Part shown: positions 2,900 through 51,651 of the stretch, one piece after another
How the letters are laid out: each line of letters begins with the position of its first letter
Numbering within the stretch: position 1 is the stretch's first letter
Assembly (NCBI GenBank): GCA_001464695.1
Contig: LNDQ01000108.1
Location: 148,090 to 212,089 of the forward strand
DNA length: 64,000 nucleotides
Origin: Betaproteobacteria bacterium Ga0077523
GTDB taxonomy: Bacteria > Pseudomonadota > Gammaproteobacteria > Burkholderiales > Ga0077523
Direction: 5' to 3'
The notes under the pieces: model-generated
Told to the model about the DNA's origin: nothing
Database searches by the model: none
Seen by the model: the letters and a program-made list of their open reading frames with translations, nothing else
Position numbers and translations under genes: made by a program

Positions 2900-2954
2900 A
2901 CGCATTCCCGCATCCTCACGACCAGACGAGCAGATCGCCACTTCCAACCATCGC

Positions 2955-7059: not shown

Positions 7060-7085
7060 CGCGTCTGGCGCCGCCGAAAAATCTC

Positions 7086-7190: not shown

Positions 7191-7214
7191 GCTTTGCATT
7201 GCTGTTCCCGCCAG

Positions 7215-9089: not shown

Positions 9090-9158
9090 GGAGAATTTCC
9101 TTTTTTTATCAGTAGCCTGAGGGTCTGGACTGGCAACCTCTGGAAGCATACACCTGCA

Positions 9159-9935: not shown

Positions 9936-10026
9936 GGGTGCAATCCGCGAAGATGACGCGGACATCATAAGCGGCCGAGGCGAAGAGTGCGGCTGGGCCG
10001 GGGCCTGGCAACGCGGGGAACGGACC

Positions 10027-10272: not shown

Positions 10273-10373
10273 CGATGTCATTCTTCGAGACGCCGACGAC
10301 CCCGCAGAATGAGCGGCGCGCAACGCGCGTCCGCTCGATTCCGCGGAAGTTGAGGGTCGGCTCCGCCGGCCCT

Positions 10374-10802
10374 CTAACCGGCTATGTATTGTTCGAGTTG
10401 TTCGATCGTCTGCCGCTGATCCGCGATCGTCTCCTTGACCACGTCCCCGATCGAAATCACGCCGGTCACCCGGTTCGCATCCAGCACCGGGAGGTGCCGC
10501 ACGCGCTTGTCGGTCATCAACCCCATGCACTCTTCCATGGTCGCGGTCGGCGGCACGCACAATACTTTCTCGGTCATGATCTCGCGCACCTGCGTCTCGC
10601 GCGAAGACTTGCCGAAGAGGATCACCTTACGTGCATAGTCGCGCTCGGAAAAGATCCCCGCCAACCGCTCGCCCTCCAGCACCAGCAGGGCCCCGACATC
10701 GCGCTCCGCCATGAGCTTGAGCGCGTCATAGACCGACGAGGTCGGCGCCACCGACAATACCTTGACCTTCTTTTCTTCCAGGACCTGTTCCACGGTCTTC
10801 AT
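10374..10802 (-). CDS. CBS-pair domain protein
   Basis: Two CBS repeats (VAPTSSVYDALKLMAERDVGALLVL; MEECMGLMTDKRVRHLPVLD...GVISIGDVV). Confidence 0.85.
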   Translation of the reverse strand: MKTVEQVLEEKKVKVLSVAPTSSVYDALKLMAERDVGALLVLEGERLAGIFSERDYARKVILFGKSSRETQVREIMTEKVLCVPPTATMEECMGLMTDKRVRHLPVLDANRVTGVISIGDVVKETIADQRQTIEQLEQYIAG

Positions 10803-10914
10803 GTCGTCACCCCTCCACGGTGTCCGGCCTCACTCCGGGACCATGGCAGTGTAGGCAAATCCGCCGCCCGGAGGAAGCGTCACCCTCGCCCTTGAGTCGC
10901 CGGACGGCGACCCC

Positions 10915-11367
10915 ATGTTGGGCGGGATGGACGAGACATTGCACATACCCTGCCCCCACTGCGCGGCCCTCAACCGCGTCCCGCGGGCGCGCCTGCGGCA
11001 GTCACCCAACTGCGGGAAGTGCAAGCAGCCGTTGTTCACCGGCACACCGGTCAAGCTCGACGAAACGACTTTCGATCGCCACATCGGCGCCGAACTGCCC
11101 GTGGTCGTGGATTTCTGGGCCGACTGGTGCGGCCCCTGCAAGATGATGGCACCGCATTTCGAGCGCGCTGCGCGCGAGCTCGAACCTGCCGTTCGCCTGG
11201 CCAAGCTCGACACCGAGGCGGCACCCGCGATCGCCGGCCGCTATGGCATCCGCTCCATTCCGACCGTCATCGCTTTCCGTGGCGGCCGCGAGATCGCCCG
11301 CCAGTCGGGCGCCATGGATCAGGGGACACTCGAGCGCTGGGTCCATTCGGCGCTGTCCGGAAGCTGA
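10915..11367 (+). CDS. trxC: thioredoxin 2 (zinc-finger N-terminal extension)
   Basis: CPHC...CGKC zinc finger followed by a thioredoxin fold with WCGPC. The start could instead be the ATG at 10927. Confidence 0.9.
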   Translation: MLGGMDETLHIPCPHCAALNRVPRARLRQSPNCGKCKQPLFTGTPVKLDETTFDRHIGAELPVVVDFWADWCGPCKMMAPHFERAARELEPAVRLAKLDTEAAPAIAGRYGIRSIPTVIAFRGGREIARQSGAMDQGTLERWVHSALSGS

Positions 11368-11451
11368 CGAGCGCTAGCCGCAGCCGGCGCCGGGTTGGCC
11401 CGTTTGGGCGAAGTGCCTCTGGCCGTTCGGGGGGAGTAGTCACCACACCCG

Positions 11452-14400
11452 TCAGATCTCCTCCCAGGCCTTCTCCACGCGCTTGAACGAAACCGGATAG
11501 GGTGTCTTCAACTGCTGGGCCCAGAGCGAGACGCGCAGCTCCTCCAGCATCCAGCGGAATTCCTCGAGCTTCGGATTGCGCACGCCGCGCGCTCGGTCCA
11601 TCTCGAGACGCTGGCTCCATGATCGCCACCAGTTGGCTAGCGTGTCCTGCCACTGGGCATCGCGGGTCGGGTTGGACGGAAACTTGGTGAGCCGCACGTC
11701 GATCGCCTTCAGGTAGCGCGGGTAGTGCTTGAGGCGCGCGTACGGTGCGCTCACGATGAAACCGTTGGGCAGCAGCGCCTTCAATTGCGCCTTGATGTCG
11801 TTCATCAACCGCTGCCAGGCCTGGGCGCCGGGCTGCTGGATGCGAGGCCGCAGCGCGTAGTACTCGGTCAGGATCTCGTTCACGAGGCTGCACACTTCGT
11901 TCGCGACATCGGTGAGCCGTGTGCGCGCCTTGACAACCCGCGCATCGAAAGCCGCCTTGTCGCGGATGCGGTCTTCCTCCACGAAGAACGCACGATCGCA
12001 GATGGCGGTGACCAGTTCCTCCTGCAGCTTCTCGATGGCGGACGCCTTGTCGTGCGCCCGCGTGCCGTCGATCTCGGCGAGCAGCGTGTACTTGAGCGCC
12101 ATCTCCTGCAGGCCGCGCAAGCTGCGCCCCAGATGCCGCACCTGTTCCACCGCCGACAACTGGAACAACCGGCGCAAGCCCCGATGAGTCGCCGCTTCCG
12201 CCTCCTGCTCGGTGTCGAGCAACCCCAGCGACACCGACTTTCCCTCGTCGACGATGGCCGGATAGCCCACCAGCTTCTGCCCCGCGCGCACGAACTCCAC
12301 CTGCTCCGGCAGTTCACCGAAATCCCAGGTGGTGACACCCTGGCGTTCGAACGAGCTGCGCGCCGTTTCGGTGAATTGCCGGCGCGCCTTCACACCGAGC
12401 TGCAGGCGCAGCGCCGGCAGATCGCGCCCCGTCGCCACTTCCGCACCGTGATCGTCGACCACGCGAAAGTTCATGCGGAGGTGCGAGGGGACATCCGCCG
12501 TGTTCCACGCATCCTTGGATACTTCCACGCCGGTCTGCTGCAGCAACACCTCCGACAGGATCTCGGTGAGAGGTACCGCATCGGGCTCGATCGCACCGAG
12601 CACGGCCGTCACCACCTGCGGCACCGGCACGAAATGCTTGCGCAGGCCCTTGGGCAGATCCTTCACGAGGTGGGTGACCTTGTCGCGCAACAGTCCCGGC
12701 ACCAGCCACTCGCAGCGCCGCTCGTCCACCTGGTTCAACAGATGCAGCGGCACGGTCATGGTCACGCCATCGAACGGATGGCCGGGTTCGAACCGATACT
12801 TGAGCGCGTACGTGACCCCGTTCATCTCGATCGAGTCGGGAAAACGCGCGGCGGTGATGTCCTGCGCCGCGTGCAGCATCAACGCCTCGCGCGTCATGTA
12901 GAGCAGGCGCGGGTTGGCGCGCTCGGCCTCCTTGCGCCAGTGCTCGAACGCGCCGACGTTCCAGATACCCTCCGGGACCACTTTGCCGTAGAACGCGACC
13001 ATCACCTCGGGATCGACCAGCACGTCGTGGCGCCGCGATTTGTGTTCGAGTGCCTCCACGTCCTTCACCAGCGCACGATTGGCCCGCAGGAACGGCGCAT
13101 CGAGTTTCGAGTCGCCGTCCACCAGCGCACCCCGGATGAAGATCTCGCGCGCTTCCTTGGGCGCTATGGGTCCGTAGCTCACGCGGCGACGAGCCACCAC
13201 CGTCAACCCGTAGACGATCACGCGCTCGTAGGCGATGACCTGCCCCGAAGCCTTCTCCCAATGCGGATCGAAATGCTGCCGATTCGCGAGGTGGGCGCCG
13301 ACCTGCTCGATCCATTCGGGTTCGACGGTGGCAACACTCCGCGCGAACAGGCGCGTGGTCTCGGTCAACTCCGCGGCCATCACCCACTTCGGCTGCTTCC
13401 GGCGCAGCGCCGATCCGGGAAACACGTGGAAACGGATGCCGCGCGCGCCCAGATAGTCGCCGCCGTCCTCGCTCTTCATGCCGATGTTGCCGAGCAGCCC
13501 TGCCAGCAGCGCGCGATGAACCTGCGCATAGTCTCCAGGCTTCTCGTTCTCGCGCCAGCCGAGCTCCGACACCAGGGCATGGAGTTGCCCGTGCAGGTCG
13601 CGCCACTCGCGCAGCCGCAGCCACGACAGGAAGCGGTCACGGCAGTCCGCCTGCAGCTTGCGCGTGGATTTCTTGTGCTTCAGCAGCTCGTCGTAGAACT
13701 CCCACATCTTGAGATAGGCGAGGAAGTCCGAGCGCTCATCGACGAACAACGCATGCGCCTGGTCGGCAGCGTCGGCTTTCTCCATCGGGCGGTCGCGCGG
13801 ATCCTGCACCGACAACGCCGCCGCGATGATCAGCCCTTCCTTCAGGCAGTTCTCCTGCTTCGCCGCGACGATCATGCGGGCGATACGCGGGTCGATCGGC
13901 AGCTTCGCGAGCTGGGCACCGACCGCCGTGAGGGTGTGCCGCTCGTCCACCGCGTTGAGTTCGGTCAGGAGCTGGTAGCCGTCGGCGATCATCCGCGGCT
14001 GCGGCGCCTCCACGAACGGGAAGCTTTCCGGTTCGCCCAGCTTGAGCGCCTTCATGCGCAGGATCACCGACGCGAGCGACGAGCGCAGAATCTCCGGATC
14101 CGTGAACTCGGGCCGGGCGTCAAACTCGTCCTCGCCATACAAGCGCACGCACACGCCGCTCGACACGCGCCCGCAGCGCCCCGCGCGCTGGTTGGCCGAC
14201 GCGCGCGAGATCGGCTCCACCTGCAGCATTTCCACCTTGTTGCGGTAGCTGTAACGGTTGATGCGTGCAAAACCCGGATCGACCACGTAGCGGATGCGCG
14301 GCACCGTGAGCGAAGTCTCCGCCACGTTGGTCGCGAGCACCACGCGATGTCCCGTGTCGGGCTTGAACACGCGGTCCTGCTCGGCCGCCGACAAGCGGGC

Positions 14401-15477
14401 GAACAGCGGCAGAATCTCGACCATCCCGGCGCGGTGTCGTCCTACCGGATGCTTGCGCAGGTGCTCGGCCGTCTCGCGGATCTCGCGTTCGCCGGGCAGG
14501 AACACCAGCGCATCGCCAGGTCCATGCGCGTGATACAGATCGTCGAGCGCATCGGCGATAGCTTCACCGAGATCGGGGGCCTCGCCCTGCTCGTCCGGCT
14601 TGAGCGGCCGGTATTTCACTTCCACCGGATACAGCCGTCCCGATACTTCCACCACGGGGGCGTCGAAGAAATGCTTCGCGAAGCGCTCGGCGTCGATGGT
14701 CGCCGAGGTGATGATCAGCTTGAGATCCGGCCGCCGCGGCAGCAGCTGGCGCAAGTAACCAAGCAGGAAATCGATGTTGAGACTGCGCTCGTGCGCTTCG
14801 TCGACGATGATGGTGTCGTAGGCGCGCAGGCTGCGATCCGTCTGAGTTTCGGCAAGCAGGATGCCGTCGGTCATCAGTTTCACGAACGGCTCGGGGCCGA
14901 TCTGATCGTGGAACCGCACCTTGTAGCCGACCAGATCGCCCAGCGGTGACCCGAGTTCCTGCGCGATGCGCGCAGCGACGGTGCGCGCCGCGATCCGGCG
15001 CGGCTGCGTGTGCCCGATCAGTCCGGTTACGCCGCGTCCGATCTCCAGACAGATCTTGGGCAGCTGCGTGGTCTTTCCCGACCCCGTTTCGCCGCAGACG
15101 ATGACCACCTGATTGGTGCGCAGCGCCGCCGCAATGTCGTCGCGACGCTCGCTCACGGGCAGCTCTTCCGGGTATCGCAGTGCGGGCATCCTCGAACGCC
15201 GCTGCGCCACGCGGGCGATCGAAGTGTCGATCGCCTTGACTATCGCCTCGATCTGGTCCGGCGGCGGTTGCTGCGCATCGCGCAGACGGGCGAGCTGCGC
15301 GCGCAGGCGGCCCTGATCGGCAAGCATGCAATCCGCGATGCGGGCGAACAGCGGATCGAGGGCAGAGCGGGGAGCGGCGGTTCTGGAGGCGGGCGCGGAC
15401 AACGCGGCAGGACGAAGGGGAGCAGCGGGGTGCAATTCTATCCCGAGCACCCTGCCGGAGCAGCAGTCGACTACCAT
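11452..15477 (-). CDS. hrpA: ATP-dependent RNA helicase HrpA (DEAH-box)
   Basis: GETGSGKTTQLPK, DEAHERS, TNVAETSLT and QRAGRCGR motifs, with the long C-terminal HrpA-specific region. The start is uncertain: 15477 overlaps the divergent eamA start, and an alternative Met lies at 15327. Confidence 0.9.
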   Translation of the reverse strand: MVVDCCSGRVLGIELHPAAPLRPAALSAPASRTAAPRSALDPLFARIADCMLADQGRLRAQLARLRDAQQPPPDQIEAIVKAIDTSIARVAQRRSRMPALRYPEELPVSERRDDIAAALRTNQVVIVCGETGSGKTTQLPKICLEIGRGVTGLIGHTQPRRIAARTVAARIAQELGSPLGDLVGYKVRFHDQIGPEPFVKLMTDGILLAETQTDRSLRAYDTIIVDEAHERSLNIDFLLGYLRQLLPRRPDLKLIITSATIDAERFAKHFFDAPVVEVSGRLYPVEVKYRPLKPDEQGEAPDLGEAIADALDDLYHAHGPGDALVFLPGEREIRETAEHLRKHPVGRHRAGMVEILPLFARLSAAEQDRVFKPDTGHRVVLATNVAETSLTVPRIRYVVDPGFARINRYSYRNKVEMLQVEPISRASANQRAGRCGRVSSGVCVRLYGEDEFDARPEFTDPEILRSSLASVILRMKALKLGEPESFPFVEAPQPRMIADGYQLLTELNAVDERHTLTAVGAQLAKLPIDPRIARMIVAAKQENCLKEGLIIAAALSVQDPRDRPMEKADAADQAHALFVDERSDFLAYLKMWEFYDELLKHKKSTRKLQADCRDRFLSWLRLREWRDLHGQLHALVSELGWRENEKPGDYAQVHRALLAGLLGNIGMKSEDGGDYLGARGIRFHVFPGSALRRKQPKWVMAAELTETTRLFARSVATVEPEWIEQVGAHLANRQHFDPHWEKASGQVIAYERVIVYGLTVVARRRVSYGPIAPKEAREIFIRGALVDGDSKLDAPFLRANRALVKDVEALEHKSRRHDVLVDPEVMVAFYGKVVPEGIWNVGAFEHWRKEAERANPRLLYMTREALMLHAAQDITAARFPDSIEMNGVTYALKYRFEPGHPFDGVTMTVPLHLLNQVDERRCEWLVPGLLRDKVTHLVKDLPKGLRKHFVPVPQVVTAVLGAIEPDAVPLTEILSEVLLQQTGVEVSKDAWNTADVPSHLRMNFRVVDDHGAEVATGRDLPALRLQLGVKARRQFTETARSSFERQGVTTWDFGELPEQVEFVRAGQKLVGYPAIVDEGKSVSLGLLDTEQEAEAATHRGLRRLFQLSAVEQVRHLGRSLRGLQEMALKYTLLAEIDGTRAHDKASAIEKLQEELVTAICDRAFFVEEDRIRDKAAFDARVVKARTRLTDVANEVCSLVNEILTEYYALRPRIQQPGAQAWQRLMNDIKAQLKALLPNGFIVSAPYARLKHYPRYLKAIDVRLTKFPSNPTRDAQWQDTLANWWRSWSQRLEMDRARGVRNPKLEEFRWMLEELRVSLWAQQLKTPYPVSFKRVEKAWEEI

Positions 15478-16387
15478 GCCGGGTTTCGCGCACCGCCTGC
15501 AGCCCTTGCCAACTCTCGCGCTCTACTGGATCTGCGTCCTGATCTGGGGTTCCACCTGGATCGCCATCACCTACCAGCTGGGCATCGTCGAGCCCGTCGT
15601 GTCCGTGGCATGGCGCTTCGTGGCTGCCGCGCTGCTGCTCTTCGGCATCTGCTTCGTCCGCAATGAGCGCCTGCGGTACGGTCGCCGCGAACACGCGTAT
15701 CTCGCGCTGCAGGGGCTGCTCATGTACAGCGCGGGCTACGTATGCGTCTACGAAGCCGAAGCGCGCGTGGTGTCGGGTCTCGTCGCCGTCGGCTATTCCG
15801 CCAGCCCGATCGCCAACATGCTGTGTGCTCGCCTGTTGTACGGGACCCCATTGAGTCGGCGCGTGGCCTTCGGCGGCGTGTTCGGCATCGCCGGGATCCT
15901 GCTGGTGTTCTCACCGGAACTCGCCCGGCTGTCGGCGAGCCCGACCGCTCTGGTCGGCATCGCGCTTACCGCCATCGCCGTGTCGGTCCAGGCCTTCGCA
16001 TCGGCCATCGCCGTGCGCAACGGCGAGCGCGGCATCGCGGTGTGGCCCGCCCTCGCGTGGGGCATGACCTATGGTGCGATCGGTTGCACCGCGTGGGTCC
16101 TATTCACGGGGACACCGATCGCCTTCGACGTACGTCCCGGCTATATCCTGTCGTGGGCCTGGCTCACGATCTTCGGCTCGATCATCGCATTCGGTTCGTA
16201 CCTGACGCTGCTCGGCCGCATCGGCACGGGCCGCGCCGGCTACATCGGCGTGATGGTGCCGGTCATCGCGCTGATCATCTCGGCATTCTTCGAGAACTAC
16301 CGTTGGACCTCCGCCACCTGGATCGGCATCGGTCTCGCGGTGGCGGGCAACTTCGTGGCGATGCGCGGCTACGGCCGGAAGGCCTGA
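15476..16387 (+). CDS. EamA/DMT-family transporter
   Basis: About 10 hydrophobic helices with two EamA-like halves (LALYWICVLIWGSTWIAI...). Start at MPGFAHRL (ATG 15476). Confidence 0.8.
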   Translation: MPGFAHRLQPLPTLALYWICVLIWGSTWIAITYQLGIVEPVVSVAWRFVAAALLLFGICFVRNERLRYGRREHAYLALQGLLMYSAGYVCVYEAEARVVSGLVAVGYSASPIANMLCARLLYGTPLSRRVAFGGVFGIAGILLVFSPELARLSASPTALVGIALTAIAVSVQAFASAIAVRNGERGIAVWPALAWGMTYGAIGCTAWVLFTGTPIAFDVRPGYILSWAWLTIFGSIIAFGSYLTLLGRIGTGRAGYIGVMVPVIALIISAFFENYRWTSATWIGIGLAVAGNFVAMRGYGRKA

Positions 16388-16537
16388 GGTGACGCCCCCC
16401 CGATGGGCCTGCGGCCCTTCCCCCCAAGGGGCCAGCCCTCTTGTGGGCTGAGGTCGGACACAGACAGTCCCTGCGGACTGTCTGTGCCTACCGAAGGCGA
16501 TCGGTCTCCGACCGATGGCGGCCCGGCGAGGGCTGAG
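16384..16537 (+). repeat. approx. 155-bp structured dispersed repeat, copy 1 (MITE/REP-like)
   Basis: It is near-identical to 45656-45816 and contains perfect hairpins CACAGACAGTCC-CTGC-GGACTGTCTGTG and CGATCGGTC-TCC-GACCGATCG. It starts at the eamA stop codon and overlaps the last ~16 codons of the convergent gene. Confidence 0.85.
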
Positions 16538-17738
16538 GCCGCCGCCGCAAGGCGAGCAGTACCAACCCCGCGCCCAGCAGCGCATAGGTTTCCGGTTCCG
16601 GAATCGGGGCCGTCAGGCCGAGAGCGACGAACTGGGTGAACTGCGTGCCGGAGAAGTTGTTGTCGGAGACCAGGATGAGCGTCTGCGCGTACGGTCCGAA
16701 CCCGGGACCGAACGTGATGCCCTCGATATTGTCGAGAAGCAAAGGGGAACCATCGTCGTTGGTCAATGTGTTGAGATCGAGCAGCAGTTGTTTGCTCATG
16801 GGTGTGAACGTCGCACCTTCGAGCGAGTCGAGGGCGGAGACGTCCGAAGCATTGCGGGCGTCGGCGAGGTAGATGCGGATGCCGTTGCCCGGCACGCCGG
16901 TCGCGAACGACCGCTCGACCGTCAGGAACTGGCGATCGCCGACCGCGAGCATCTCCACCAGGCCATTGGTCGCAAAGGCGCTGGCGGGGGACGGCAGCGC
17001 AGTCAGCGGCCCTACCTCATAGGCGTATTCCGCCTGGGCGGAACGGGTCGCGACATCGAACTCCACGACGCGTGTCGTCGACGGTTGGTTGGTGGCCTGG
17101 GTCACCGGCAACGAATCCTGGGCAAGCCCGTTTTCCGCCGCGACGTACAGCTTGGTGCGGTCGGTGGACAGCGTGAGGCTCTCGAAGGCGAGGTTGTTGT
17201 AGATGCCCGCGTCGCCCGCCACCAGACCCGAGGCGTCGCCGACAGGGTTGAAGCGCGTCGGCACGGCAAAGTCCCCCGTGTGGTTGCCGGCAAGGTCCAT
17301 CGAGCGGACGGTGGGATTCTGGAATCCCGCGGCGGTCCGTTGACCTTCGTTGGACCAGTACAGGGTGTCTCCCACCTTGCGGATCGACTCCGGATCGACC
17401 GTCAACGCCGCGAAGTCGGTGCCCGCCACCGTCTTGAGATTCGTGACCCCGGTGAACGTCACGCCGGCCGAACCGGGCGCGCTCGACCGCGCGAACTGCG
17501 ACAGATCGAGCGTGAGGTCATAGAAACGCGCCGGGTTCAACTGGCTGCGGTCATCGCTGATGGCCCAGTACCGGCTCGCCGCGGCATCGAAGTCGATGCC
17601 CGAAAGGCCGCCGATCGTCGTGCCGGCGTACTGAGCGCCCGTCGGAACGATGTTCTGCCCGATGTACTCGAGAGGTGCGGCAGCGGCCGCGACGGCATGA
17701 AGTCCGAATACGAGTGCACAAACAAGTCTTCTTCGCAT
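16488..17738 (-). CDS. phytase-like (esterase-like activity of phytase family) protein with PEP-CTERM anchor
   Basis: Signal peptide MRRRLVCALVFGLHAVAAAAA. GLSGIDFD...YWAISDD and NIEGITFGP are typical of the phytase-like family. The C-terminal PEP-CTERM reads PIPEPETYALLGAGLVLLALRRR, followed by an unusual 18-aa tail. Confidence 0.75.
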   Translation of the reverse strand: MRRRLVCALVFGLHAVAAAAAPLEYIGQNIVPTGAQYAGTTIGGLSGIDFDAAASRYWAISDDRSQLNPARFYDLTLDLSQFARSSAPGSAGVTFTGVTNLKTVAGTDFAALTVDPESIRKVGDTLYWSNEGQRTAAGFQNPTVRSMDLAGNHTGDFAVPTRFNPVGDASGLVAGDAGIYNNLAFESLTLSTDRTKLYVAAENGLAQDSLPVTQATNQPSTTRVVEFDVATRSAQAEYAYEVGPLTALPSPASAFATNGLVEMLAVGDRQFLTVERSFATGVPGNGIRIYLADARNASDVSALDSLEGATFTPMSKQLLLDLNTLTNDDGSPLLLDNIEGITFGPGFGPYAQTLILVSDNNFSGTQFTQFVALGLTAPIPEPETYALLGAGLVLLALRRRPQPSPGRHRSETDRLR

Positions 17739-17752
17739 GGGAATGCTCCGGT

Positions 17753-19144
17753 TCAATGATTGGCACGACGGCGGGTCGCGGCACCGGCCAGAACGGCGAG
17801 ACCGAGACCCATGAAGCCCCAAGTGCCCGGCTCGGGGACGGGCATCGCCACATCCGCCCACACCGCGCGATGGTCCGAAGTGGGGAATCCGCTGAACAGA
17901 TTCGGATTGCCGAAGGTGCCGACGAGCGGGAACAGGGGATCCGTCGATTCCGGCCAGAACACGCCGCTGCCGACGATGGTCGTGTTGCTCGACGGCAGCA
18001 CGTAGTCGACGCGCAGATTGCCCGCGGCCGTCCCGGCCGGCGTGTCGGCGAAGTCGGCGGTGTCATAGCGGGGATCGCCGACGTCGTTCGCATTGGCACC
18101 GCCCTGCAGGGCGGACTGCTCGGTGCCGCCGGGGGCTTGCGGCGTCACGCTCGTATTCACCTTCGGATCGTTCAGCAGTTGTCCGATGGCGTTGAACGGT
18201 GCATCGCGAAAGCTGTCGCCGTCGAGCAGGTCGGCGTTGTAGTCGCCCGCGATCACGAATACGGCGTCGGACGTCAGCCCACCGGTACCGCCCTGGTCGT
18301 CGTAGATATACGAAGCGCCATTGACGTAGTCCTTCCAGAAGCGGATTTCGTCGTGGTTGCGCTTGCCGTTGCGATCTTCCGAGCCGTCGAACACCGGCGG
18401 TGTCGGATGCGCGGTGAGAAAATGCACCTCCTGCCCGTCGATGTTGAGGACCACGTCGACGTGATTCTTGGAGGACAGGCGCAGCACGTCGATCTCCTCG
18501 GGCGAGTAGAACGCCGCGAGATCATTCGCGGTGGGATCGCTGGTGAGCAGGTTGTCCGGCATGTCCTTCCACAGGAAATTCTGGAAGGTGCGCACGCCGA
18601 CGATCTCGTACTTCGAATAGATCGTCATCCCGAACTGCCCGGCGAAGTTGCCGAAGCCGAAGGCGTCGTCGCCGCCGCCGATGGAACCGTTGTTGTTGAG
18701 ATCGAAACCCGAGGCGATCCCGGTGTTCGTGGTCGGCGTGTAGCCGTACGCATACGAGATGGCGCTTGCCCCGCCCTGCGGAACGCCGAGGAAGTTGCTC
18801 TGGAAGCGCTGGTGCGCGAGGCTCGTGTAGCCGAGCGCGTTCGCCGTGCTCGAAGAGCCTGCGATGCCCGCGTGGTCGTGATCGAACTCGTTGATGAGCA
18901 CTACATCCGGTGCGATGCGCTGGATGACCTGCGCGACGTTCTGCGCCTGGAGGATGCGCCGGGAAACCGGATCCCCGAGACCCGCTCCGGCCGGGTTCGC
19001 GAGATCCGACAGGAGCTCGCCCGACGCATTGCGGTTGAGCGACGCGTTGAACGTGGCGAAGCGGACTGTGGTCGCCGTTTCCGACTGGGCCGCAACCGCG
19101 ACCGGCAGGACGAGCAGCGCTGACGCAAGGATTCTGATGGCCAT
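17753..19144 (-). CDS. endonuclease/exonuclease/phosphatase (EEP) family protein with PEP-CTERM anchor
   Basis: Start MAIRILAS preceded by GAGGAGG. EEP hallmarks are FATFNASLNR, INEFD, GDYNAD and SDHRAVWADV. C-terminal PEP-CTERM VPEPGTWGFMGLGLAVLAGAATRRR. Confidence 0.8.
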   Translation of the reverse strand: MAIRILASALLVLPVAVAAQSETATTVRFATFNASLNRNASGELLSDLANPAGAGLGDPVSRRILQAQNVAQVIQRIAPDVVLINEFDHDHAGIAGSSSTANALGYTSLAHQRFQSNFLGVPQGGASAISYAYGYTPTTNTGIASGFDLNNNGSIGGGDDAFGFGNFAGQFGMTIYSKYEIVGVRTFQNFLWKDMPDNLLTSDPTANDLAAFYSPEEIDVLRLSSKNHVDVVLNIDGQEVHFLTAHPTPPVFDGSEDRNGKRNHDEIRFWKDYVNGASYIYDDQGGTGGLTSDAVFVIAGDYNADLLDGDSFRDAPFNAIGQLLNDPKVNTSVTPQAPGGTEQSALQGGANANDVGDPRYDTADFADTPAGTAAGNLRVDYVLPSSNTTIVGSGVFWPESTDPLFPLVGTFGNPNLFSGFPTSDHRAVWADVAMPVPEPGTWGFMGLGLAVLAGAATRRRANH

Positions 19145-19382
19145 CGGGTTGCCTCCTCGGGATCGACCGCCTGCGAAGACTTCATGCCTGGCGGATAGCG
19201 AGGCAAGCCTAGGGGACCGATTTGACAATCCGGTTCCGCGGTCCGGCAGAAGGCGTAAGCCGATGGAATCACCGGGCAAAACGTAGTTCTTTCGGATCAC
19301 TCACCACATCAGACCAATGTCACACGGCGTGGGTACTTTCAGGAGTCAGGCCCACACCCAAGAACAGCAACCGGAGACCACC

Positions 19383-21020
19383 ATGGCCGTTTCACATCGA
19401 TTGATGCCGACACTGCTCGGCGTCCTCTTCCTCACCACCGCCGGAACGACACCTGCCGCCGGTCCGATCCAGGCGGTCGAGAAGCAATGGTCCTTCGACC
19501 ATTTCGCCGCCAACGCCGGCCGCTCCTCCGAGATCGTGGCGTTCGACGGTGCCAACCAGAATCTCTGGGTGATCGGCGGCAACGGCATCGACGTGCTCGA
19601 CCTCGGTGGCAATCTGTTGAAGTCCTTCGAGACCACCAGCGTGTACGGCGGCGTGAACAGCATCTCGATTCGCAACGGCGTGGCGGCCGTCGCCTTCGGC
19701 AACGCCGTCGCGCGCGACGGTCTCGGCAGCGTGCAGTTCTTCGACACCACTGCGTTCCTCAGTGCCGCCACCGTCGGCGCCGCCAATCTCGGCGGTGTCG
19801 CCGTCGGCAACGTACCCGACATGGTGACCTGGAGTGCCGACGGCTCCATGGTGCTCGTTGCCAATGAAGGCGAGCGCTACGTGGCTTCGGGCACGACGTT
19901 CAATCCGGCCGGCAGCGTCAGCATCATCGACTTCAACGCAGCGGCACCGGGCAGCTCGGTCGTGCATACGGTCGGCTTCACCGCCTTCGACGGACAGGAG
20001 TCGGCGTTGCGCTCGGCTGGCGTGCGGATTCAGGCCGGGCTCGCGGCATCGATCGCGCTCGAACCGGAGTACATCGCGATCTCACCCGACGGCAACACGG
20101 CCCACGTGACGCTGCAGGAAGCCAATGCGATCGGCGTCCTCGACCTCAACACCAGGACCTTCACGAGCATCGTGCCGCTGGGCCTCAAGGACTACAGCCT
20201 GCCCGGCAACCAGATCGATCCCACCGACCAGGACGCCGGCGTGGCGTTCCGCAACGTGCCGGTAAAGAGCATGTACATGCCCGACGGCATCGCTTCCTAC
20301 TCCGCGGGCGGCAGCACGTTCTACGTCATGGCGAACGAGGGCGACGCATTCACCGACGACGGCGACCTGCGCCGCCTCAGCAGTTCCGCAATCGTCCTGG
20401 ATCCGACAGCGTTCCCGAACGCTGCCGACCTCAAGCAGCCGGGTAACCTCGGGCGTCTCAATGTGTCGCTGATCGGTGCGGACGGCCTCGGCGCAGGGCC
20501 TACCGGATTCACCGAAATCGTTTCTTACGGTGGCCGTTCCTTCTCGATCCGCGACGCCAATGGCGCGTTGGTCTTCGACAGCGGCGACATCCTCGACAAG
20601 CAGGCCCACGCGCTCGGCCTGTACGCCGACGGTCGCAGCGACGACAAGGGCGTCGAGCCCGAGGGCGTCGCCTTGTTCACGATCGCCGGTCGCACGCTCG
20701 CCTTCATCGGAATGGAGCGCACCACGCGCAGCGCAGTCGCCGTGTTCGACATCACCGATCCGGCCAACGCGACCTTCCTGCAGATGATCGTCGGCGATCT
20801 CGCCTCGGAAGTCCGGCCCGAAGGTCTGCTCGCCTTCGAGGCCAACGGGAAGATCTTTCTCGCGGTCGCCAACGAGGCGCTGGAGGACATTCCCACCGCC
20901 GCCGGCTCGAACCGGACCGTCCTCTACGAGATCACGCCGGTGCCGGAACCTTCGACCTATGCACTAATGGGTCTCGGTCTTGTCGGCCTGGGGTGGGTCG
21001 CACGGCGCAAACGCGGCTAG
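19383..21020 (+). CDS. choice-of-anchor-I-like / alkaline-phosphatase-like beta-propeller protein with PEP-CTERM anchor
   Basis: Signal peptide. Repeated motifs PDMVTWSADGSMVLVANEGE, EPEYIAISPDGNTAHVTLQEANAIGVLD, MANEGDA, EPEGVALF and AVANE. C-terminal VPEPSTYALMGLGLVGLGWVARRKRG. Confidence 0.7.
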   Translation: MAVSHRLMPTLLGVLFLTTAGTTPAAGPIQAVEKQWSFDHFAANAGRSSEIVAFDGANQNLWVIGGNGIDVLDLGGNLLKSFETTSVYGGVNSISIRNGVAAVAFGNAVARDGLGSVQFFDTTAFLSAATVGAANLGGVAVGNVPDMVTWSADGSMVLVANEGERYVASGTTFNPAGSVSIIDFNAAAPGSSVVHTVGFTAFDGQESALRSAGVRIQAGLAASIALEPEYIAISPDGNTAHVTLQEANAIGVLDLNTRTFTSIVPLGLKDYSLPGNQIDPTDQDAGVAFRNVPVKSMYMPDGIASYSAGGSTFYVMANEGDAFTDDGDLRRLSSSAIVLDPTAFPNAADLKQPGNLGRLNVSLIGADGLGAGPTGFTEIVSYGGRSFSIRDANGALVFDSGDILDKQAHALGLYADGRSDDKGVEPEGVALFTIAGRTLAFIGMERTTRSAVAVFDITDPANATFLQMIVGDLASEVRPEGLLAFEANGKIFLAVANEALEDIPTAAGSNRTVLYEITPVPEPSTYALMGLGLVGLGWVARRKRG

Positions 21021-21042
21021 AGTCGTCGGCCCGCATCCCGGC

Positions 21043-21124
21043 CTTCCCCCGACGACGTCGGGGGAAGGGGTGTACGGCTCCCTCCCCCGGCTTTGCCGGG
21101 GGAGGGCTGGGGTGGGGGCAGCCA
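21043..21124. repeat. G/C-rich REP element (family 'CCCTCCCCC-loop-GGGGGAGGG ... GGGGTGGGGGC'), copy 1
   Basis: Two hairpins, CTTCCCCCGACGACGTCGGGGGAAG and CCCTCCCCCGGCTTTGCCGGGGGAGGG, followed by CTGGGGTGGGGGCAGCC. It lies between convergent stops. Confidence 0.8.
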
Positions 21125-21138
21125 CCCGCCGACCAGCG

Positions 21139-21496: not shown

Positions 21497-21814
21497 CTAG
21501 GGCGAGTGCGGCGGCTCCGGGCGCTTCCGGTCGGACGCTTTCCGTGCCGCCATCGCGATCAACTGTGCGCTCACCGGCGTCGTGATCGCGACGAACAGCG
21601 TGATCAGCAACTCGTGCAGACTCACACCGTCACCGCGGGTGGAGAAGAACACGATCGAGGCCAGCAGCAATCCGCCGATGCCCAGCGTCGTCGCCTTGCT
21701 CGGCCCGTGCAGTCGCGTCAGCAGATCGGGGAAACGCGCGAGCCCGATGGAACCGAGCAGCGCAAAGACCGCGCCCACGAGTACCAGGATCGAAACCACG
21801 GCATCGACGATCAC
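21497..21814 (-). CDS. mnhG: monovalent cation/H+ antiporter subunit G
   Basis: GTG start at 21812-21814 preceded by GAGGGA. (M)IVDAVVSILVLVGAVFALLGSIGLARFPDLLTRLH is typical of MnhG/PhaG. It is the last gene of the Mrp operon. Confidence 0.8.
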   Translation of the reverse strand: MIVDAVVSILVLVGAVFALLGSIGLARFPDLLTRLHGPSKATTLGIGGLLLASIVFFSTRGDGVSLHELLITLFVAITTPVSAQLIAMAARKASDRKRPEPPHSP

Positions 21815-21824
21815 GGCATTTCCC

Positions 21825-22094
21825 TCATTCGATGATGTCGCCGCGCAGCAGATACTTCGCCAACGCGACGGTCCCGATGAAGCCAAGCGCGGCGATGAGC
21901 AGCGCGGCCTCGAAGTAGAGCGGACTTCCCGTCCGGATGCAGAACAGGATGAGCAATGCCGCGACGTTGATGCTCATGGTATCCAGCGCGAGGATGCGGT
22001 CCACGGCGTCCGGTCCGACGACGAGCCGCCAGACGTTGAGCAGGAGCGCGCAGCCGAACAGCAGCGCGGCGATGACGAGGGCGTTACTCAGCAT
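21825..22094 (-). CDS. mnhF: monovalent cation/H+ antiporter subunit F
   Basis: 89 aa with 3 TM helices; DRILALDT motif; operon position. Confidence 0.8.
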   Translation of the reverse strand: MLSNALVIAALLFGCALLLNVWRLVVGPDAVDRILALDTMSINVAALLILFCIRTGSPLYFEAALLIAALGFIGTVALAKYLLRGDIIE

Positions 22095-22579
22095 ACGAAA
22101 ATCTCCTTCAGCCTCCGCTCGTACCGGGACTTGACCGCCTCGATCACCGTCGCATCATCCTCGGCATCAAGCGCGTGAATGGTGAGCTCGCGAGCACCCA
22201 GATCGAGGTCCACCGAGACCGTGCCGGGGGTGAGAGTGACAGTCACAGCGAGCAAGCTCGCCACCATCGGCTGGTCGATATCGAGCGGCACCACGACGAT
22301 CCTCGGCCGCAAGCGCGCGAGCGGGCTCAGCACCAGGCGCGCGACGTCGACGTTGGCCACGAGGATGTCGCGCAGCACCAGTCCCACGTAGAGCAGTGCC
22401 TTCATCGGCGCTCGGATGCGCGGCAACGTCGGCACGGTCGCTTGAACCGCCCGCCCGATGACGAACCCGAGCACCACCCCGAGGAGCACGTGGCCGACCG
22501 TCAGCGATTGGTTGAACAGCAGCCAGAGCAAGGCCAGCGCCAGCGACAGGCGCGGGTGCGGCAGCAGGCGCGCCATCAT
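22088..22579 (-). CDS. mnhE: monovalent cation/H+ antiporter subunit E
   Basis: Start MMARLLPHPRLSLALALLWLLFNQS. It overlaps the subunit D stop by 4 nt. The 699-aa track ORF is an upstream out-of-gene extension. Confidence 0.8.
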   Translation of the reverse strand: MMARLLPHPRLSLALALLWLLFNQSLTVGHVLLGVVLGFVIGRAVQATVPTLPRIRAPMKALLYVGLVLRDILVANVDVARLVLSPLARLRPRIVVVPLDIDQPMVASLLAVTVTLTPGTVSVDLDLGARELTIHALDAEDDATVIEAVKSRYERRLKEIFVC

Positions 22580-24117
22580 TGCCGCGCCCCCTCTGCCGCG
22601 TCCGGCTCCACCCGAATCGTCCAGCGCAACGCCGTTGCTCCGAGCACCCGATCGACGTAGTCGCCGGGCGTGACCACGTCCTGGGCGGCCTGGCGCACAT
22701 ACCGATCCACGGGACCCGCAAAGATCGTGAGCGCCATGATCGCCGCAACCAGCAACCCTACGGGCGCCAGGCGCGCGGCCGAGGCCGCGGATGGCAGTCC
22801 GTTGCATGGGTCCGGCGCCGCAGACCAGAACAGACGAGTACCCGCACGGACCAGTGCCACCAGGTTGAGCAGCGAGGTGCAAAGGATGATCCCCCACACC
22901 CACGGCATGGCGCCCGCCCCTTGCAGGATCGAGACCTTGCCGAGAAATCCGGCGAGCGGCGGCAAGCCTGCCACTACGACAGCCACGACGACGTAGAGCA
23001 CTCCGATCGCCGCGGCTCCATGCATGCGCGGTGCGCGACACAGCCGATCGCCGAAGCTGCCCCGGGCGCCGCCGAGCGCGTCGGCGAGCAGGAACAATGC
23101 TGGGATGGCGAGCGTGCTCGCGAGCAGGTAATACAGCCCGCCACCAAGACCCGCGATCGAGAACAGCCCGACGGCCGCCAGGGCCATGGCGCTCGACGCA
23201 AGCGCCAGCCACGATGCGAGCTGGGTCAGGGTAACGGCAGCGAAAGCACCCAACGCCGCGCAGACGAGCGAAACCAGTGCCGCCGGCAGCACGATAGCCG
23301 CGAACGCCTCCATGACGTTGCTCGCGCCGAACACGATCCACGCGACGCGGGCCACCGCATAGACCCCCACCTTGGTGAGGACCGAAAACAATCCTGCAAC
23401 GGGTGCCGATGCAGCGGCGTAGGTGCCGGGCAACCACAGATACAACGGTGCCGCTGCCGCCTTCAGCAGGAACACGATCACGAGCAGCAGTCCCCCGGAT
23501 CGGATCCACGGCCCCTGCTCCGGCGGCGCGTTGGCGAGCGCGACGGCGAGATCGGCCATATTGAGAGTCCCGCCGACGCGATAGAGCATGCTCACGGCCA
23601 CGAGGAACAGCGCCGAACCGAGCAGATTCAGCACCACGTAATGGATTCCGACCTTCAAGCGCTGTGCACCGCCGCCGTGCTGCAGCAGTGCGTACGACGC
23701 GATCAGCATCAGCTCGAAGCACACGAACAGGTTGAACAGGTCGCCCGTCAGGAATGCGCCGTTCAACCCCATCAACTGGAAGTGGAAGAGCGCGTGGAAA
23801 TGCGCGCCGCGACTGTCCCAACCCTGGACCGCGTAGAGCACGCTCGCGCACGCCACGACCGCGGTGAGGCAGACCATCAGGGCCGACAGCCGGTCGAGCA
23901 CGAAGACGATGCCGATCCGGGCCGGCCAGTCGCCGAAGGCGTAGACGCCGAAGTCGCCGCCGGCAGCCTGATGGACGAGGACCGCGGACACCACCAGCAA
24001 TGCCAGCACCGACACCAGCGACACCACACGTTGCGTCGCCAGCCGTTCGCGCACCAACAGTAGTCCGCACGCCGTCAGTGCCGGGAGCAGGAACGGGACG
24101 ACGATCCAGTGGTTCAT
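22576..24117 (-). CDS. mnhD: monovalent cation/H+ antiporter subunit D (NuoN/NuoM-like)
   Basis: 513 aa, polytopic, proton-conducting membrane-transporter family. ATGA overlap with subunit C. Confidence 0.85.
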   Translation of the reverse strand: MNHWIVVPFLLPALTACGLLLVRERLATQRVVSLVSVLALLVVSAVLVHQAAGGDFGVYAFGDWPARIGIVFVLDRLSALMVCLTAVVACASVLYAVQGWDSRGAHFHALFHFQLMGLNGAFLTGDLFNLFVCFELMLIASYALLQHGGGAQRLKVGIHYVVLNLLGSALFLVAVSMLYRVGGTLNMADLAVALANAPPEQGPWIRSGGLLLVIVFLLKAAAAPLYLWLPGTYAAASAPVAGLFSVLTKVGVYAVARVAWIVFGASNVMEAFAAIVLPAALVSLVCAALGAFAAVTLTQLASWLALASSAMALAAVGLFSIAGLGGGLYYLLASTLAIPALFLLADALGGARGSFGDRLCRAPRMHGAAAIGVLYVVVAVVVAGLPPLAGFLGKVSILQGAGAMPWVWGIILCTSLLNLVALVRAGTRLFWSAAPDPCNGLPSAASAARLAPVGLLVAAIMALTIFAGPVDRYVRQAAQDVVTPGDYVDRVLGATALRWTIRVEPDAAEGARQ

Positions 24118-24443
24118 CGCGGCGTATCGCCTCCGTCCACATGATCGCTCGCCGTGGTTGCCCGCGCGCGCATGGACAGGACGACAAGATAGGCCGTCAT
24201 GCCGAATCCGATCACGATGGCGGTCAGCACCAGCGCTTGCGGCAACGGGTCGGCCATTGCCACCGCAGCACCGACGATCGGCGGCTGTCCGATGCGAATG
24301 CCGCCGGCCACGAAAACGAACAGGTTGACGGCGTAGGACAGCAAGGCGAGTCCGAGCACCACGGCAAACGTGCGTGCCCGCAGGCAGAGATAGACGCCCG
24401 CTGCAGCGAGCAGGCCGATCGCGGAGGCCAGCAGGAGTTCCAT
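24114..24443 (-). CDS. mnhC: monovalent cation/H+ antiporter subunit C (NuoK-like)
   Basis: 109 aa with 3 TM helices. Its start abuts the stop of subunit A/B. Confidence 0.85.
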   Translation of the reverse strand: MELLLASAIGLLAAAGVYLCLRARTFAVVLGLALLSYAVNLFVFVAGGIRIGQPPIVGAAVAMADPLPQALVLTAIVIGFGMTAYLVVLSMRARATTASDHVDGGDTPR

Positions 24444-27227
24444 TCAGCTATCGACCTCCCGCCGGGGTACCAAGCGTCCCAGCTGTTCCAGGATCAGCAT
24501 GGTCACGCCCACCACCACGAGGTAGACGCCGAGATCGAACAACGCGGCTGTCGCGAGATGCAGTTCGCCGATGATCGGTGGATGCACGTGTCCATGCGCG
24601 CTGGTGAGGAAGGGCCGTCCGAACAGCCAGGCGCCGAGCCCGGTCGCAGCCGCGATCGCCAGACCTGCCACCATCAGGCCCGGGAAATCGAGCGGCAACT
24701 GCCGCCGGCTCCACGCCGCTCCGTTGCCCACGTACAGCACTGCCAGGATGGCCCCGGTGATGAGCCCGGCCACGAATCCGCCGCCCGGCAGATTGTGCCC
24801 ACGCAGGAACAGGTACGCACTGAGCAGCAGCGCCAGCGGGAGCAGCGCGCGTGCGAGCAGTGCCAGCATGGCAGGGCGGAACGCCGGTGCTTCGCCGGAT
24901 TCCCGCTCGCTCGGTGCCCCCGCCAGAAGCGCGACGATACCAAGCGCGGCGACCACCAGCACGGTGATCTCGCCGTAGGTATCGAAACCGCGAAAGTCCA
25001 CCAGGATCACGTTGACGACATTGGTACCCCCGCCACCCGGCACGCTGCGCGCGACGTGCTCGGACGACACCGAGGATCCTGCGCTCGTCATCATCCACCA
25101 CGCGGCACCGCCCAGCCCGAGACCGCACGCGGCCGCAATGACACCGTCGCGTGCGCGCCGCAGCCGCGACGATTCGATCGGTGTCGTGGCCGGCAGAAAC
25201 GGCAGAGCGAGGAGCATCAGCAGGATCGTCGCTACCTCGACCGTGAGCTGCGTGAGCGCCAGATCCGGTGCCGAGAACCAGGCGAACGCCGCCGCCACCA
25301 TGAGTCCCACGGCCCCGACGAGAATCAGCGCGGTCAAGCGCTGCCGGTGCATGGCGATGGTGGCGCCAAGCGCGATCACCAGCACGAGCCAACCGATCAC
25401 CGCGATCGCGTCGAGCGGCGTGTAGCGATCGAGCACCCGCTCGGGGATACCGCCTGCGAATGGCCACCAGCCCACGGCCAGCATCACCGCCACCAACACG
25501 GCTACCTGTCGCTGCAGGCTGCCGTTCGCGGTGAAATGGGTGAACCGCCGCGCGAACTTCGTGAGCGACACGATCACGATCTGGTAGAGGCGCGCGCCGG
25601 TCCACGGGCTGCGCCCCTCGAAAGCATGCAGGTTGTAGAGGCGCTGGGCGCCGAAATACAGCACGAGTCCCAGCACGGTGGCGATGAGACTCATGGCGAG
25701 CGGCAGGTTGAATCCGTGCCAGATCGCCAGGCTGTATTCGGGCAGGGTGCCGCCGACCACGCTGGCCCCCGCCACCGCGAGGATCGGCCCCACCGTCAGG
25801 TTCGGCGCCATGCCGACCAGCAGGCACAGCGCCACGAGGACTTCCACGGGAATACGCATCCACCTCGGCGGTTCGTGCGGCACGCGTTCGCTCGCATCCC
25901 ATTCACCGTTGAAGAACACGTCGTGGATGAAGCGCGTGGAGTAGGCCACGCTGAAGACACCGGCGAAAGTTGCGACCGCCGGCACGATCCAGGACAACGC
26001 CCCGACATCCCGCAACGTCAACGTTTCCGCGAAGAACATCTCTTTCGAGAGAAAGCCATTCAGCAGCGGCACGCCGGCCATGGCCGCTGCAGCGACCGTC
26101 GCGAGCACGGCCGTGTACGGGAGGTAGCGCCACAACCCCGCCAGCTTGCGCATGTCGCGCGTGCCGGTCTCGTGGTCGATGATGCCGGCGGCCATGAACA
26201 GCGATGCCTTGAAGGTCGCATGGTTGATGATGTGGAAGACCGCGGCCACGGCCGCGAGCTTGGTGTTCATGCCGAGCAGCAGCACGATCAGTCCAAGGTG
26301 GCTGATGGTCGAATAGGCGAGCAGGCCCTTGAGATCATGGCGGAACAATGCGGTGTAGGCACCGAACACCAGGGTGACGAGCCCGGAACCGGCCACGAGG
26401 TAGAACCACAGCTCGGTGCCCGACAGTGCCGGCCACAATCGCGCGAGCAGGAAGATGCCGGCCTTTACCATCGTGGCCGAGTGCAGGTAGGCCGAGACCG
26501 GCGTCGGCGCCGCCATGGCATTGGGTAACCAGAACTGGAAAGGAAACTGCGCCGACTTGGTGAAGGCACCGACGAGGATCAGCACCAGCGCCACGGCGTA
26601 GTGCGGATGCGCGCGAATGGTGTCCCCGCGGCGCACCAGTTCCGAGATCTCGAAGGTGCCGGCCATGTCGCCTAGCAACAGGGCGCCGCCGAGCAAGGCG
26701 AGCCCGCCCATTCCGGTCACCGCCAGTGCCATGCGTGCGCCCTGGCGCGCATCGGGTCGATGGCTCCAGTAGCCGATCAGCAGGAACGACGTGAGACTGG
26801 TGAGCTCCCAGAACACCAGGGTGAGCAGCAGGTTGTCGGACAGTGCGATTCCGATCATGGCACCCATGAAAGCCAGCAGCAGTGCCAGCAGGCGGGCGAG
26901 CGGATCTTCCGCCGCCAGGTAGTAGCGCGCGTACAGGATCACCAGCAGGCCGATGACGAAGATCAGCCCGCAGAACAGCAGTGCGAGGCCATCGAGCCGG
27001 AACGAAAGGTGCAGCCCCAGCGTCTCGATCCAGGGAACGCTCACGCGCCAGGCCCCGCCGTCGAACACCTGGGAACCGAGGAGCCAGAGCAGCACCAGGC
27101 CTGCGATGGGCACCAGCGCGGCGGCCCAGCCGATCATGGTCCGGCCACGGGCATGCAACAGGGCCGGCAGCGCCGCGCCCACGAACGGCAGGGCCACGAG
27201 CGCGTAGAGCAGCGCGGACTGCGTCAT
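24444..27227 (-). CDS. mnhA: monovalent cation/H+ antiporter fused subunit A/B (NuoL-like plus MnhB domain)
   Basis: 927 aa. The N-terminal part is NuoL/MrpA-like (WELTSLTSFLLIGYW, AMAAPTPVSAYLHSATMVKAG). The C-terminal MnhB-like part makes this a group-2 (six-gene) Mrp/Pha layout. Confidence 0.9.
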   Translation of the reverse strand: MTQSALLYALVALPFVGAALPALLHARGRTMIGWAAALVPIAGLVLLWLLGSQVFDGGAWRVSVPWIETLGLHLSFRLDGLALLFCGLIFVIGLLVILYARYYLAAEDPLARLLALLLAFMGAMIGIALSDNLLLTLVFWELTSLTSFLLIGYWSHRPDARQGARMALAVTGMGGLALLGGALLLGDMAGTFEISELVRRGDTIRAHPHYAVALVLILVGAFTKSAQFPFQFWLPNAMAAPTPVSAYLHSATMVKAGIFLLARLWPALSGTELWFYLVAGSGLVTLVFGAYTALFRHDLKGLLAYSTISHLGLIVLLLGMNTKLAAVAAVFHIINHATFKASLFMAAGIIDHETGTRDMRKLAGLWRYLPYTAVLATVAAAAMAGVPLLNGFLSKEMFFAETLTLRDVGALSWIVPAVATFAGVFSVAYSTRFIHDVFFNGEWDASERVPHEPPRWMRIPVEVLVALCLLVGMAPNLTVGPILAVAGASVVGGTLPEYSLAIWHGFNLPLAMSLIATVLGLVLYFGAQRLYNLHAFEGRSPWTGARLYQIVIVSLTKFARRFTHFTANGSLQRQVAVLVAVMLAVGWWPFAGGIPERVLDRYTPLDAIAVIGWLVLVIALGATIAMHRQRLTALILVGAVGLMVAAAFAWFSAPDLALTQLTVEVATILLMLLALPFLPATTPIESSRLRRARDGVIAAACGLGLGGAAWWMMTSAGSSVSSEHVARSVPGGGGTNVVNVILVDFRGFDTYGEITVLVVAALGIVALLAGAPSERESGEAPAFRPAMLALLARALLPLALLLSAYLFLRGHNLPGGGFVAGLITGAILAVLYVGNGAAWSRRQLPLDFPGLMVAGLAIAAATGLGAWLFGRPFLTSAHGHVHPPIIGELHLATAALFDLGVYLVVVGVTMLILEQLGRLVPRREVDS

Positions 27228-51650: not shown

Positions 51651-51651
51651 G

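Follow-up and report, generated by a model that had tools for sequence, protein, structure and literature searches.

Gene content of the locus

Three adjacent genes (genes A, B and C, 16488-21020) were analyzed in a 64-kb window of Betaproteobacteria bacterium Ga0077523 (contig LNDQ01000108.1, positions 148,090 to 212,089). They encode, respectively, a phytase-like protein, an EEP phosphoesterase and a choice-of-anchor I protein, each with a signal peptide and a PEP-CTERM sorting tail, and they may well form a set for phosphoester hydrolysis at the cell surface. The window is the whole stretch of DNA that was analyzed, and all coordinates are positions within it. The genes and the region between them are as follows.

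16488-17738, minus strand: gene A, phytase-like beta-propeller (PF13449), 416 amino acids, start at 17738 (MRRRLV...)
17753-19144, minus strand: gene B, EEP phosphoesterase (PF03372), 463 amino acids, start at 19144 (MAIRIL...)
19145-19382, no strand: divergent promoter region, 238 bp between genes B and C, read directly
19383-21020, plus strand: gene C, choice-of-anchor I propeller (bacterial MSP130-type), 545 amino acids, start at 19383 (MAVSHRL...)

The true starts of all three genes are internal to the longest open reading frames (ORFs) and are preceded by Shine-Dalgarno motifs, and the gene models are those called on public copies of the contig. Genes B and A constitute an operon with gene B first, since the gap between them is only 14 nt and contains GGAG. 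Ribosome-binding sites for gene B (GAGGAGG) and gene C (GGAG) lie in the 238-bp region.

The nearest named relatives are Burkholderiales metagenome-assembled genomes (MAGs). In a relative with a 5.29-Mb genome, whose DNA is 77-83% identical, the trio is syntenic, all three tails are intact, and the flanking neighbors are the same as in the window (EamA, HrpA and an Mrp antiporter). An identical gene C occurs on a Joint Genome Institute (JGI) drinking-water-plant metagenome contig, which is 99.94% identical to the window over 21.6 kb, and another on an activated-carbon metagenome contig.

Sorting tails and signal peptides

As read from the sequence itself, the N-terminus of each product shows a basic n-region and a hydrophobic core, with a cleavage site of the AxA-like type. 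The signal peptides of the three genes were read as MRRRLVCALVFGLHAVAAAAA with cleavage before P, MAIRILASALLVLPVAVA before AQ, and MAVSHRLMPTLLGVLFLTTAGTTPAA before G. The C-terminal signals were identified by profile search and by regular expression.

16488-16604, minus strand: PEP-CTERM signal of gene A, IPEPETYALLGAGLVLLALRRR and then the tail PQPSPGRHRSETDRLR
17753-17839, minus strand: PEP-CTERM signal of gene B, VPEPGTWGFMGLGLAVLAGAATRRRANH
20940-21020, plus strand: PEP-CTERM signal of gene C, VPEPSTYALMGLGLVGLGWVARRKRG

Genes A, B and C scored 25.3, 26.9 and 35.4 bits against PF07589 (cut-off 20.7) and 22.4, 18.5 and 26.7 bits against TIGR02595 (cut-off 16). These scores and the N-terminal readings bear out the original prediction, made from the window's sequence, of three neighboring genes that share signal peptides and PEP-CTERM tails. 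In a six-frame regular-expression scan of the 64 kb, (V/I)PEP-hydrophobic-basic C-termini were found in these three genes only, and because these are the window's only such tails, their clustering is not attributed to chance. The PEP motif, transmembrane helix, basic cluster and signal peptide of each product are those of the PEP-CTERM/exosortase system described by Haft and colleagues. Unlike typical substrates of that system, gene A carries a 16-residue extension after the basic cluster (IPEP...RRR plus 16 amino acids), which derives from a repeat element; the tail is shorter in relatives, close ones ending in ...RRRRPQAFRL. EEP orthologs of methanotroph-type Gammaproteobacteria (Methylomonas and relatives) have VP(V/L)PG-hydrophobic-basic ends rather than PEP ends, which suggests that the EEP family swaps sorting tails between lineages, as the choice-of-anchor families do.

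Family assignments of the three products

Gene A matched PF13449 at 257.8 bits (cut-off 27.6) over profile positions 1-284 of 284, and the profile search gave no match to PF02333, the beta-propeller phytase family. Its AlphaFold2 (AF2) model had a predicted local distance difference test (pLDDT) score of 83.6 and was an all-beta propeller with no specific PDB neighbor, and many D/E/N residues were invariant in the homolog alignment. A PDB sequence search returned no relative for gene A or gene B.

Gene B matched PF03372 at 72.9 bits (cut-off 24.5). Seven of its residues (N33, E86, H246, D301, N303, D424 and H425) were invariant among 16 aligned homologs, and from general knowledge of EEP enzymes we take these to be catalytic or metal-binding residues of the active site. 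The AF2 model (pLDDT 68) matched EEP structures with a Foldseek probability of 1.00, and its structural neighbors, namely uncharacterised EEPs, ANGEL2, TDP2, nocturnin and sphingomyelinases, were about equal, as for a generic EEP fold. An NCBIfam scan at E <= 0.01 returned PEP-CTERM tail models only, with no ExeM/NucH match, which places gene B outside the ExeM/NucH-type nucleases. Gene B likely encodes a phosphodiesterase for which DNA is not specifically indicated as the substrate.

Gene C matched NF038117 at 469.1 bits (cut-off 300) over profile positions 1-458 of 458, and PF22494 at 243.6 bits (cut-off 32). In the PDB sequence search it showed only YVTN-type propeller-repeat similarity (match 1l0q). 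More than 4,500 homologs were found, most of them with PEP-CTERM. Profile searches thus placed all three products in their proposed families above cut-off. The label that gene C had been given, 'choice-of-anchor-I/alkaline-phosphatase-like', is upheld in its first half by NF038117 and finds no support in its second, the words 'alkaline phosphatase' being absent from the top homolog names; nor did we find evidence of phosphatase activity for choice-of-anchor I.

The sole functional literature found on choice-of-anchor I defines the family by its alternative anchors, PEP-CTERM among them, and holds that MSP130 is thought to derive from bacterial homologs via horizontal transfer (PMC11878542). 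Gene C shares its seven-bladed choice-of-anchor I propeller domain with MSP130 of sea urchins and molluscs. MSP130, unlike gene C, belongs to eukaryotes, as a glycoprotein of the cell surface associated with CaCO3 skeletons, whereas the bacterial context found in this analysis is phosphoester and phosphate metabolism. Literature searches turned up no link between the atypical alkaline phosphatase discussed below and MSP130.

Linkage of the three families in other genomes

The alignment of 16 EEP homologs was scanned against one genome per species, which yielded 544 relatives. Partner domains were counted within 10 kb at 87 loci, comprising the best 80 of the 544 relatives plus earlier loci. 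The best 80 lie in Beta-, Gamma- and Alphaproteobacteria, many cyanobacteria, Actinomycetota and Planctomycetes. A phytase-like domain stood beside the EEP domain or was fused to it at 69 of the 87 loci, and GDPD occurred within 10 kb at 38. In Methyloversatilis, a five-gene operon encodes, in order, phytase-like, GDPD, GDPD, phytase-like and EEP proteins, with PEP-CTERM on every product.

The two domains share a single ORF of 1,100-3,300 amino acids in approximately 50 cyanobacterial genomes and in one Beijerinckiaceae MAG. Pfam scans resolved EEP, PF13449, PF02333 phytase, PhoD, two choice-of-anchor I domains and DUF4114 at locus L046 (7968-17108), and EEP, PF13449, PF02333 and two GDPD domains at loci L022 (9995-18589) and L076. 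These cyanobacterial 'mega-phosphatases' of 2,200-3,050 amino acids (L046, L022, and L076 at 2281-8916 and 9995-19039) end in DUF4114, Calx-beta or RTX repeats. Choice-of-anchor I proteins adjacent to the EEP genes at L034, L054, L036 and L076 are fused to a second EEP type (PF19580, a subtype distinct from that of gene B), and the one at L076 adds a 5'-nucleotidase C domain. The divergent arrangement of choice-of-anchor I and EEP-phytase-like genes seen in the window recurs in this last cyanobacterium (L076). Through these fusions, the three families found in the window are connected with one another as well as with proven families of phosphatases, and the fusions explain why EEP homologs have been named '3-phytase/alkaline phosphatase D' by JGI.

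Promoter analysis

In the classical PhoB promoter of E. coli, the Pho box lies 10 bp upstream of the -10 hexamer. The Pho box consists of two 7-bp direct repeats, 4 nt apart, that end 10 nt before the -10 hexamer. In Inhella sp. (JAYRYU010000001, locus L092, 1-8572), a choice-of-anchor I ortholog with 56% identity is the last gene of a pst-pho operon, 34 nt after pstS-pstC-pstA-pstB-phoU-phoB-phoR. The pstS promoter there reads GTGTCAC-N4-ACGTCAT-N10-TACAGT, and that of the choice-of-anchor I gene, inside the 3' end of phoR, reads GCGTCAC-N4-GCGTCAT-N10-TAGCGT. A Pho box 10 nt from the -10 hexamer is common to nine orthologous EEP promoters from five lineages, and a Pho-box score of at least 10/14 was reached by 12 of 23 orthologous upstream regions versus 13% of random windows (Fisher p = 1.3e-5). 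The 238-bp region of the window contains two weak Pho-box-like sites.

19206-19239, minus strand: Pho-box-like site and -10 hexamer of the B-A operon, GCGGAAC-cgga-TTGTCAA-N10-TAGGCT, with a degenerate distal repeat
19306-19339, plus strand: weaker Pho-box-like site and -10 hexamer of gene C, ACATCAG-acca-ATGTCAC-N10-TACTTT

The B-A site matches those in orthologous promoters in position and architecture, and of the two repeats both divergent promoters retain only the proximal one, followed by the N10 spacer and a TAnnnT hexamer. The original prediction had stated that neither an exosortase nor an obvious Pho box is present in the window. The first part agrees with our scan of the window's ORFs; the second needs softening, because weak, positionally conserved half-sites exist. 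None of the window's scanned ORFs is a pst or pho gene. With the E. coli Pho-box consensus, the best score in the intergenic region was 9/14, no improvement over random windows, and only the architecture-aware comparison with orthologs was informative. A strict cyanobacterial Pho-box pattern, which is probably too strict, found nothing upstream of 61 fusion genes. Sigma-54 (PrsR-type) control was rejected, as the promoter region has no -24/-12 match with up to two mismatches.

Nodularia spumigena under P limitation strongly induces, at log2 4.6-5.5, a GDPD/phytase-domain protein and an 'atypical alkaline phosphatase' with PF13449; a neighboring DUF4114 gene is also induced (PMC9846622, PMC3610870). 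Literature searches that joined PEP-CTERM with phosphatase and phosphate limitation found nothing.

Proposed function of the gene trio

We interpret the trio as a widely conserved module for extracellular phosphoester hydrolysis, here in a split form whose parts are tethered to the surface, and assign this reading, which is drawn from sequence comparison, a probability of roughly 0.62. By the comparative evidence, the module would consist of PF13449, choice-of-anchor I and a distinct EEP subfamily and would span Burkholderiales to Nostocales. The most likely function of the trio is tethered hydrolysis of organic phosphoesters, probably in response to phosphate starvation, with diesters predicted to be cleaved by the EEP protein and monoesters by one or both propellers. 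The proposal that the three genes act as one phosphoester-hydrolyzing unit draws support from the linkage at 69 of 87 loci, the cyanobacterial fusions, the pst-pho operon context in Inhella and the induction of a PF13449 protein in Nodularia (PMC9846622).

It is hypothesized that Sec exports the products of genes A, B and C, and that an exosortase encoded elsewhere cuts them at the PEP motif and attaches them to exopolysaccharide or the cell envelope. The EEP enzyme would then cleave phosphodiesters to monoesters, from which the phytase-like propeller, a domain that NCBI reports in the Nodularia protein annotated 'atypical alkaline phosphatase', would release orthophosphate in a Ca2+-dependent manner. 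The choice-of-anchor I propeller may act on another group of phosphoesters, by hydrolysis or by capture, with nucleotides or nucleic acid as possible candidates. Phosphate limitation would raise expression through PhoB acting on the weak Pho boxes of both divergent promoters.

Several observations weigh against this interpretation. None of the window's scanned ORFs encodes an exosortase. For PF13449 and choice-of-anchor I we found neither a solved structure nor a documented substrate; the link of PF13449 to an 'atypical PhoA' rests on the annotation of the Nodularia authors, and for choice-of-anchor I/MSP130 a Ca2+-binding seven-bladed barrel, not catalysis, has been proposed (PMC11878542). 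Choice-of-anchor I occurs within 10 kb of EEP at only 8 of the 87 loci, and three of these eight represent the locus in the window or in its close relative. Several betaproteobacterial EEP orthologs stand alone, in varied contexts and without a recognizable Pho box, which indicates that the trio is a lineage-specific packaging and not a universal operon. The pattern TGTCAH-N10-TANNNT has two matches in 64 kb, both in the divergent promoters, where 0.09 were expected, but it was partly derived from the window's own site. A position weight matrix (PWM) trained on nine independent sites, which themselves score 22-31 bits, ranked 19206-19239 best in the whole window at 14.9 bits, below the training range, and one of 20 shuffles attained 14.9 bits somewhere in 64 kb. 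The gene C site, also degenerate in its distal repeat, scored 6.0 bits. Given the degenerate distal repeats and low PWM scores, Pho control at the window is suggested but not established.

The closest known counterparts are the giant multidomain phosphoesterases of cyanobacteria, among them Nodularia spumigena nsp7010 and nsp6490, annotated 'atypical alkaline phosphatase' and 'GDPD with phytase domain'. Their EEP domains are 52-56% identical to gene B and their PF13449 domains 38-46% identical to gene A; the domain order is that of the B-A operon, and choice-of-anchor I is fused or adjacent in some genomes. The cyanobacterial enzyme is a single polypeptide of 1,100-3,300 amino acids with added GDPD, PF02333 and PhoD domains and a DUF4114/RTX/Calx-beta end, whereas the trio comprises three proteins of 416-545 amino acids, each with its own signal peptide and PEP-CTERM anchor. 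The trio also resembles the Pho-regulon phosphoesterases (PhoX, PhoD, GlpQ/UgpQ, beta-propeller phytase, EddA/EddB and ExeM) in its predicted extracellular release of phosphate and in the Pho box placed 10 nt upstream of the -10 hexamer in orthologous promoters. It differs from them in matching none of PF05787, PF09423, PF02333, PF03009 or the ExeM/NucH model, in its Sec-type signal peptides, and in the predicted retention of its products by a sorting tail instead of their release.

None of the three genes is out of the ordinary for its family; the families are large and already annotated, with thousands of identically built homologs, and PF13449 and choice-of-anchor I in particular are very widespread, with thousands of homologs found. 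The more novel by-product of the analysis is the recurrent fusion or adjacency of choice-of-anchor I/MSP130-type propellers to phosphatases and a pst-pho operon. On the basis of this association with EEP, PF13449, PhoD, phytase and 5'-nucleotidase, and of the position at the end of the pst-pho operon, we tentatively suggest, with the odds against it, that choice-of-anchor I is a functional component of an ancient module for extracellular phosphoester hydrolysis, in which it would serve as an enzyme or as a subunit that binds substrate or calcium phosphate. If so, the ancestral chemistry of MSP130 would be the handling of phosphate esters or calcium phosphate and not of carbonate, and the small, separable PEP-CTERM trio would be a convenient test system for PF13449 and choice-of-anchor I. 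The findings also bear on the role of the bacterial relatives of animal MSP130 proteins. The comparative evidence yields a specific biochemical hypothesis for how phosphorus is cycled in environments such as biofilters, sludge flocs and cyanobacterial blooms, and the trio is a counterpart of the giant cyanobacterial enzymes that, with its three separate proteins, is more tractable.

Alternative explanations

The three genes could instead constitute a set of extracellular-DNA nucleases, in which the EEP protein is a secreted DNase like ExeM, NucH or EddB and the propellers bind or process DNA or nucleotides, for nutrition or for the remodeling of a floc matrix that contains extracellular DNA. 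The EEP family includes nucleases, TDP2 is among the fold matches of gene B, and JGI names choice-of-anchor I homologs 'DNA-binding beta-propeller fold protein YncE'. In cyanobacteria, Exo_endo_phos_3 occurs within choice-of-anchor I proteins, joined at L076 by 5'-nucleotidase C, and Pho-linked scavenging of DNA has precedents in P. aeruginosa EddA/EddB and Shewanella ExeM (PMC3572637). However, gene B lacks the ExeM/NucH match; its structural neighbors are ANGEL2, nocturnin, sphingomyelinases and uncharacterised EEP as much as DNA enzymes; its fusion partners, phytase, GDPD and PhoD, are small-molecule organophosphate enzymes; and the EEP domain fused to choice-of-anchor I is of the other subtype (PF19580). 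We regard this explanation as unlikely, and the extracellular-DNA option that had been raised alongside organophosphate scavenging finds no specific backing from the EEP protein.

A second possibility is that the products serve mainly to build the matrix of a floc or biofilm, or as surface proteins that bind calcium in the manner of MSP130, with their enzyme folds incidental and no tie to phosphate. The tails partially match the floc-associated PepA model NF033554, although these matches are limited to the sorting tail and lie below cut-off. The proposed Ca2+-binding barrel (PMC11878542), the source in a water-treatment biofilter or activated-carbon community, and the weakness of the window's Pho boxes would also fit such a role. 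Against it stand the invariance across phyla of active-site-type EEP residues and of acidic PF13449 residues, the fusions to PhoD, phytase and GDPD, and the pst-pho operon context in Inhella, and we consider a mainly structural role quite improbable.

That three unrelated exosortase substrates stand side by side by chance, with no common function or regulation, is very improbable and is largely refuted by the domain fusions: the EEP gene does occur alone in other betaproteobacteria, and choice-of-anchor I homologs are also found alone, but the 64 kb contain no PEP-CTERM genes besides the trio, which keeps its synteny in a relative at 77-83% DNA identity, recurs in divergent form at L076, and has all three of its domains in one polypeptide at L046.

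Flanking repeats and other features of the window

Two palindromic elements lie at the ends of the trio.

16386-16540, no strand: repeated palindromic element of ~155 bp, which spans the last ~17 codons and stop of gene A
21021-21125, no strand: hyper-stable palindromic element of 105 nt, directly after the gene C stop (-83.1 kcal/mol, z-score -6.76)

The first element contains a perfect 26-nt palindrome at 16460-16485 (ACAGACAGTCCCTGCGGACTGTCTGT) and has a second copy, ~92% identical, at ~45660-45817. This repeat explains the odd tail of gene A after RRR, since its first copy encodes the final ~17 codons together with the stop. The same copy is probably the terminator of the B-A operon, and the element at 21021-21125 is probably a terminator as well. 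An Rfam scan of the locus gave only a chance miRNA-like match on a palindrome. In a strain variant from the activated-carbon metagenome (L002), the match to the window ends at ~21120, and beyond this point a dienelactone hydrolase gene takes the place of the window's small ORF and Mrp operon.

That operon (21497-27227), immediately downstream of the trio, encodes a complete Mrp/Mnh-type multisubunit cation/proton antiporter and is syntenic in the relative with the 5.29-Mb genome. At 1289-9149, a short SecA-like protein (654 amino acids) is clustered with three proteins of the HlyD type, an unusual secretion-related set in which one HlyD-type protein carries a fused peptidase M50 domain and another a GAF domain. 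A biosynthetic cluster at ~37600-53800, aryl-polyene or xanthomonadin-like in appearance, contains a polysaccharide deacetylase, methyltransferases, acyltransferases, an FAD halogenase, an AMP-ligase, a LolA-like protein, an MMPL exporter and ketosynthases.

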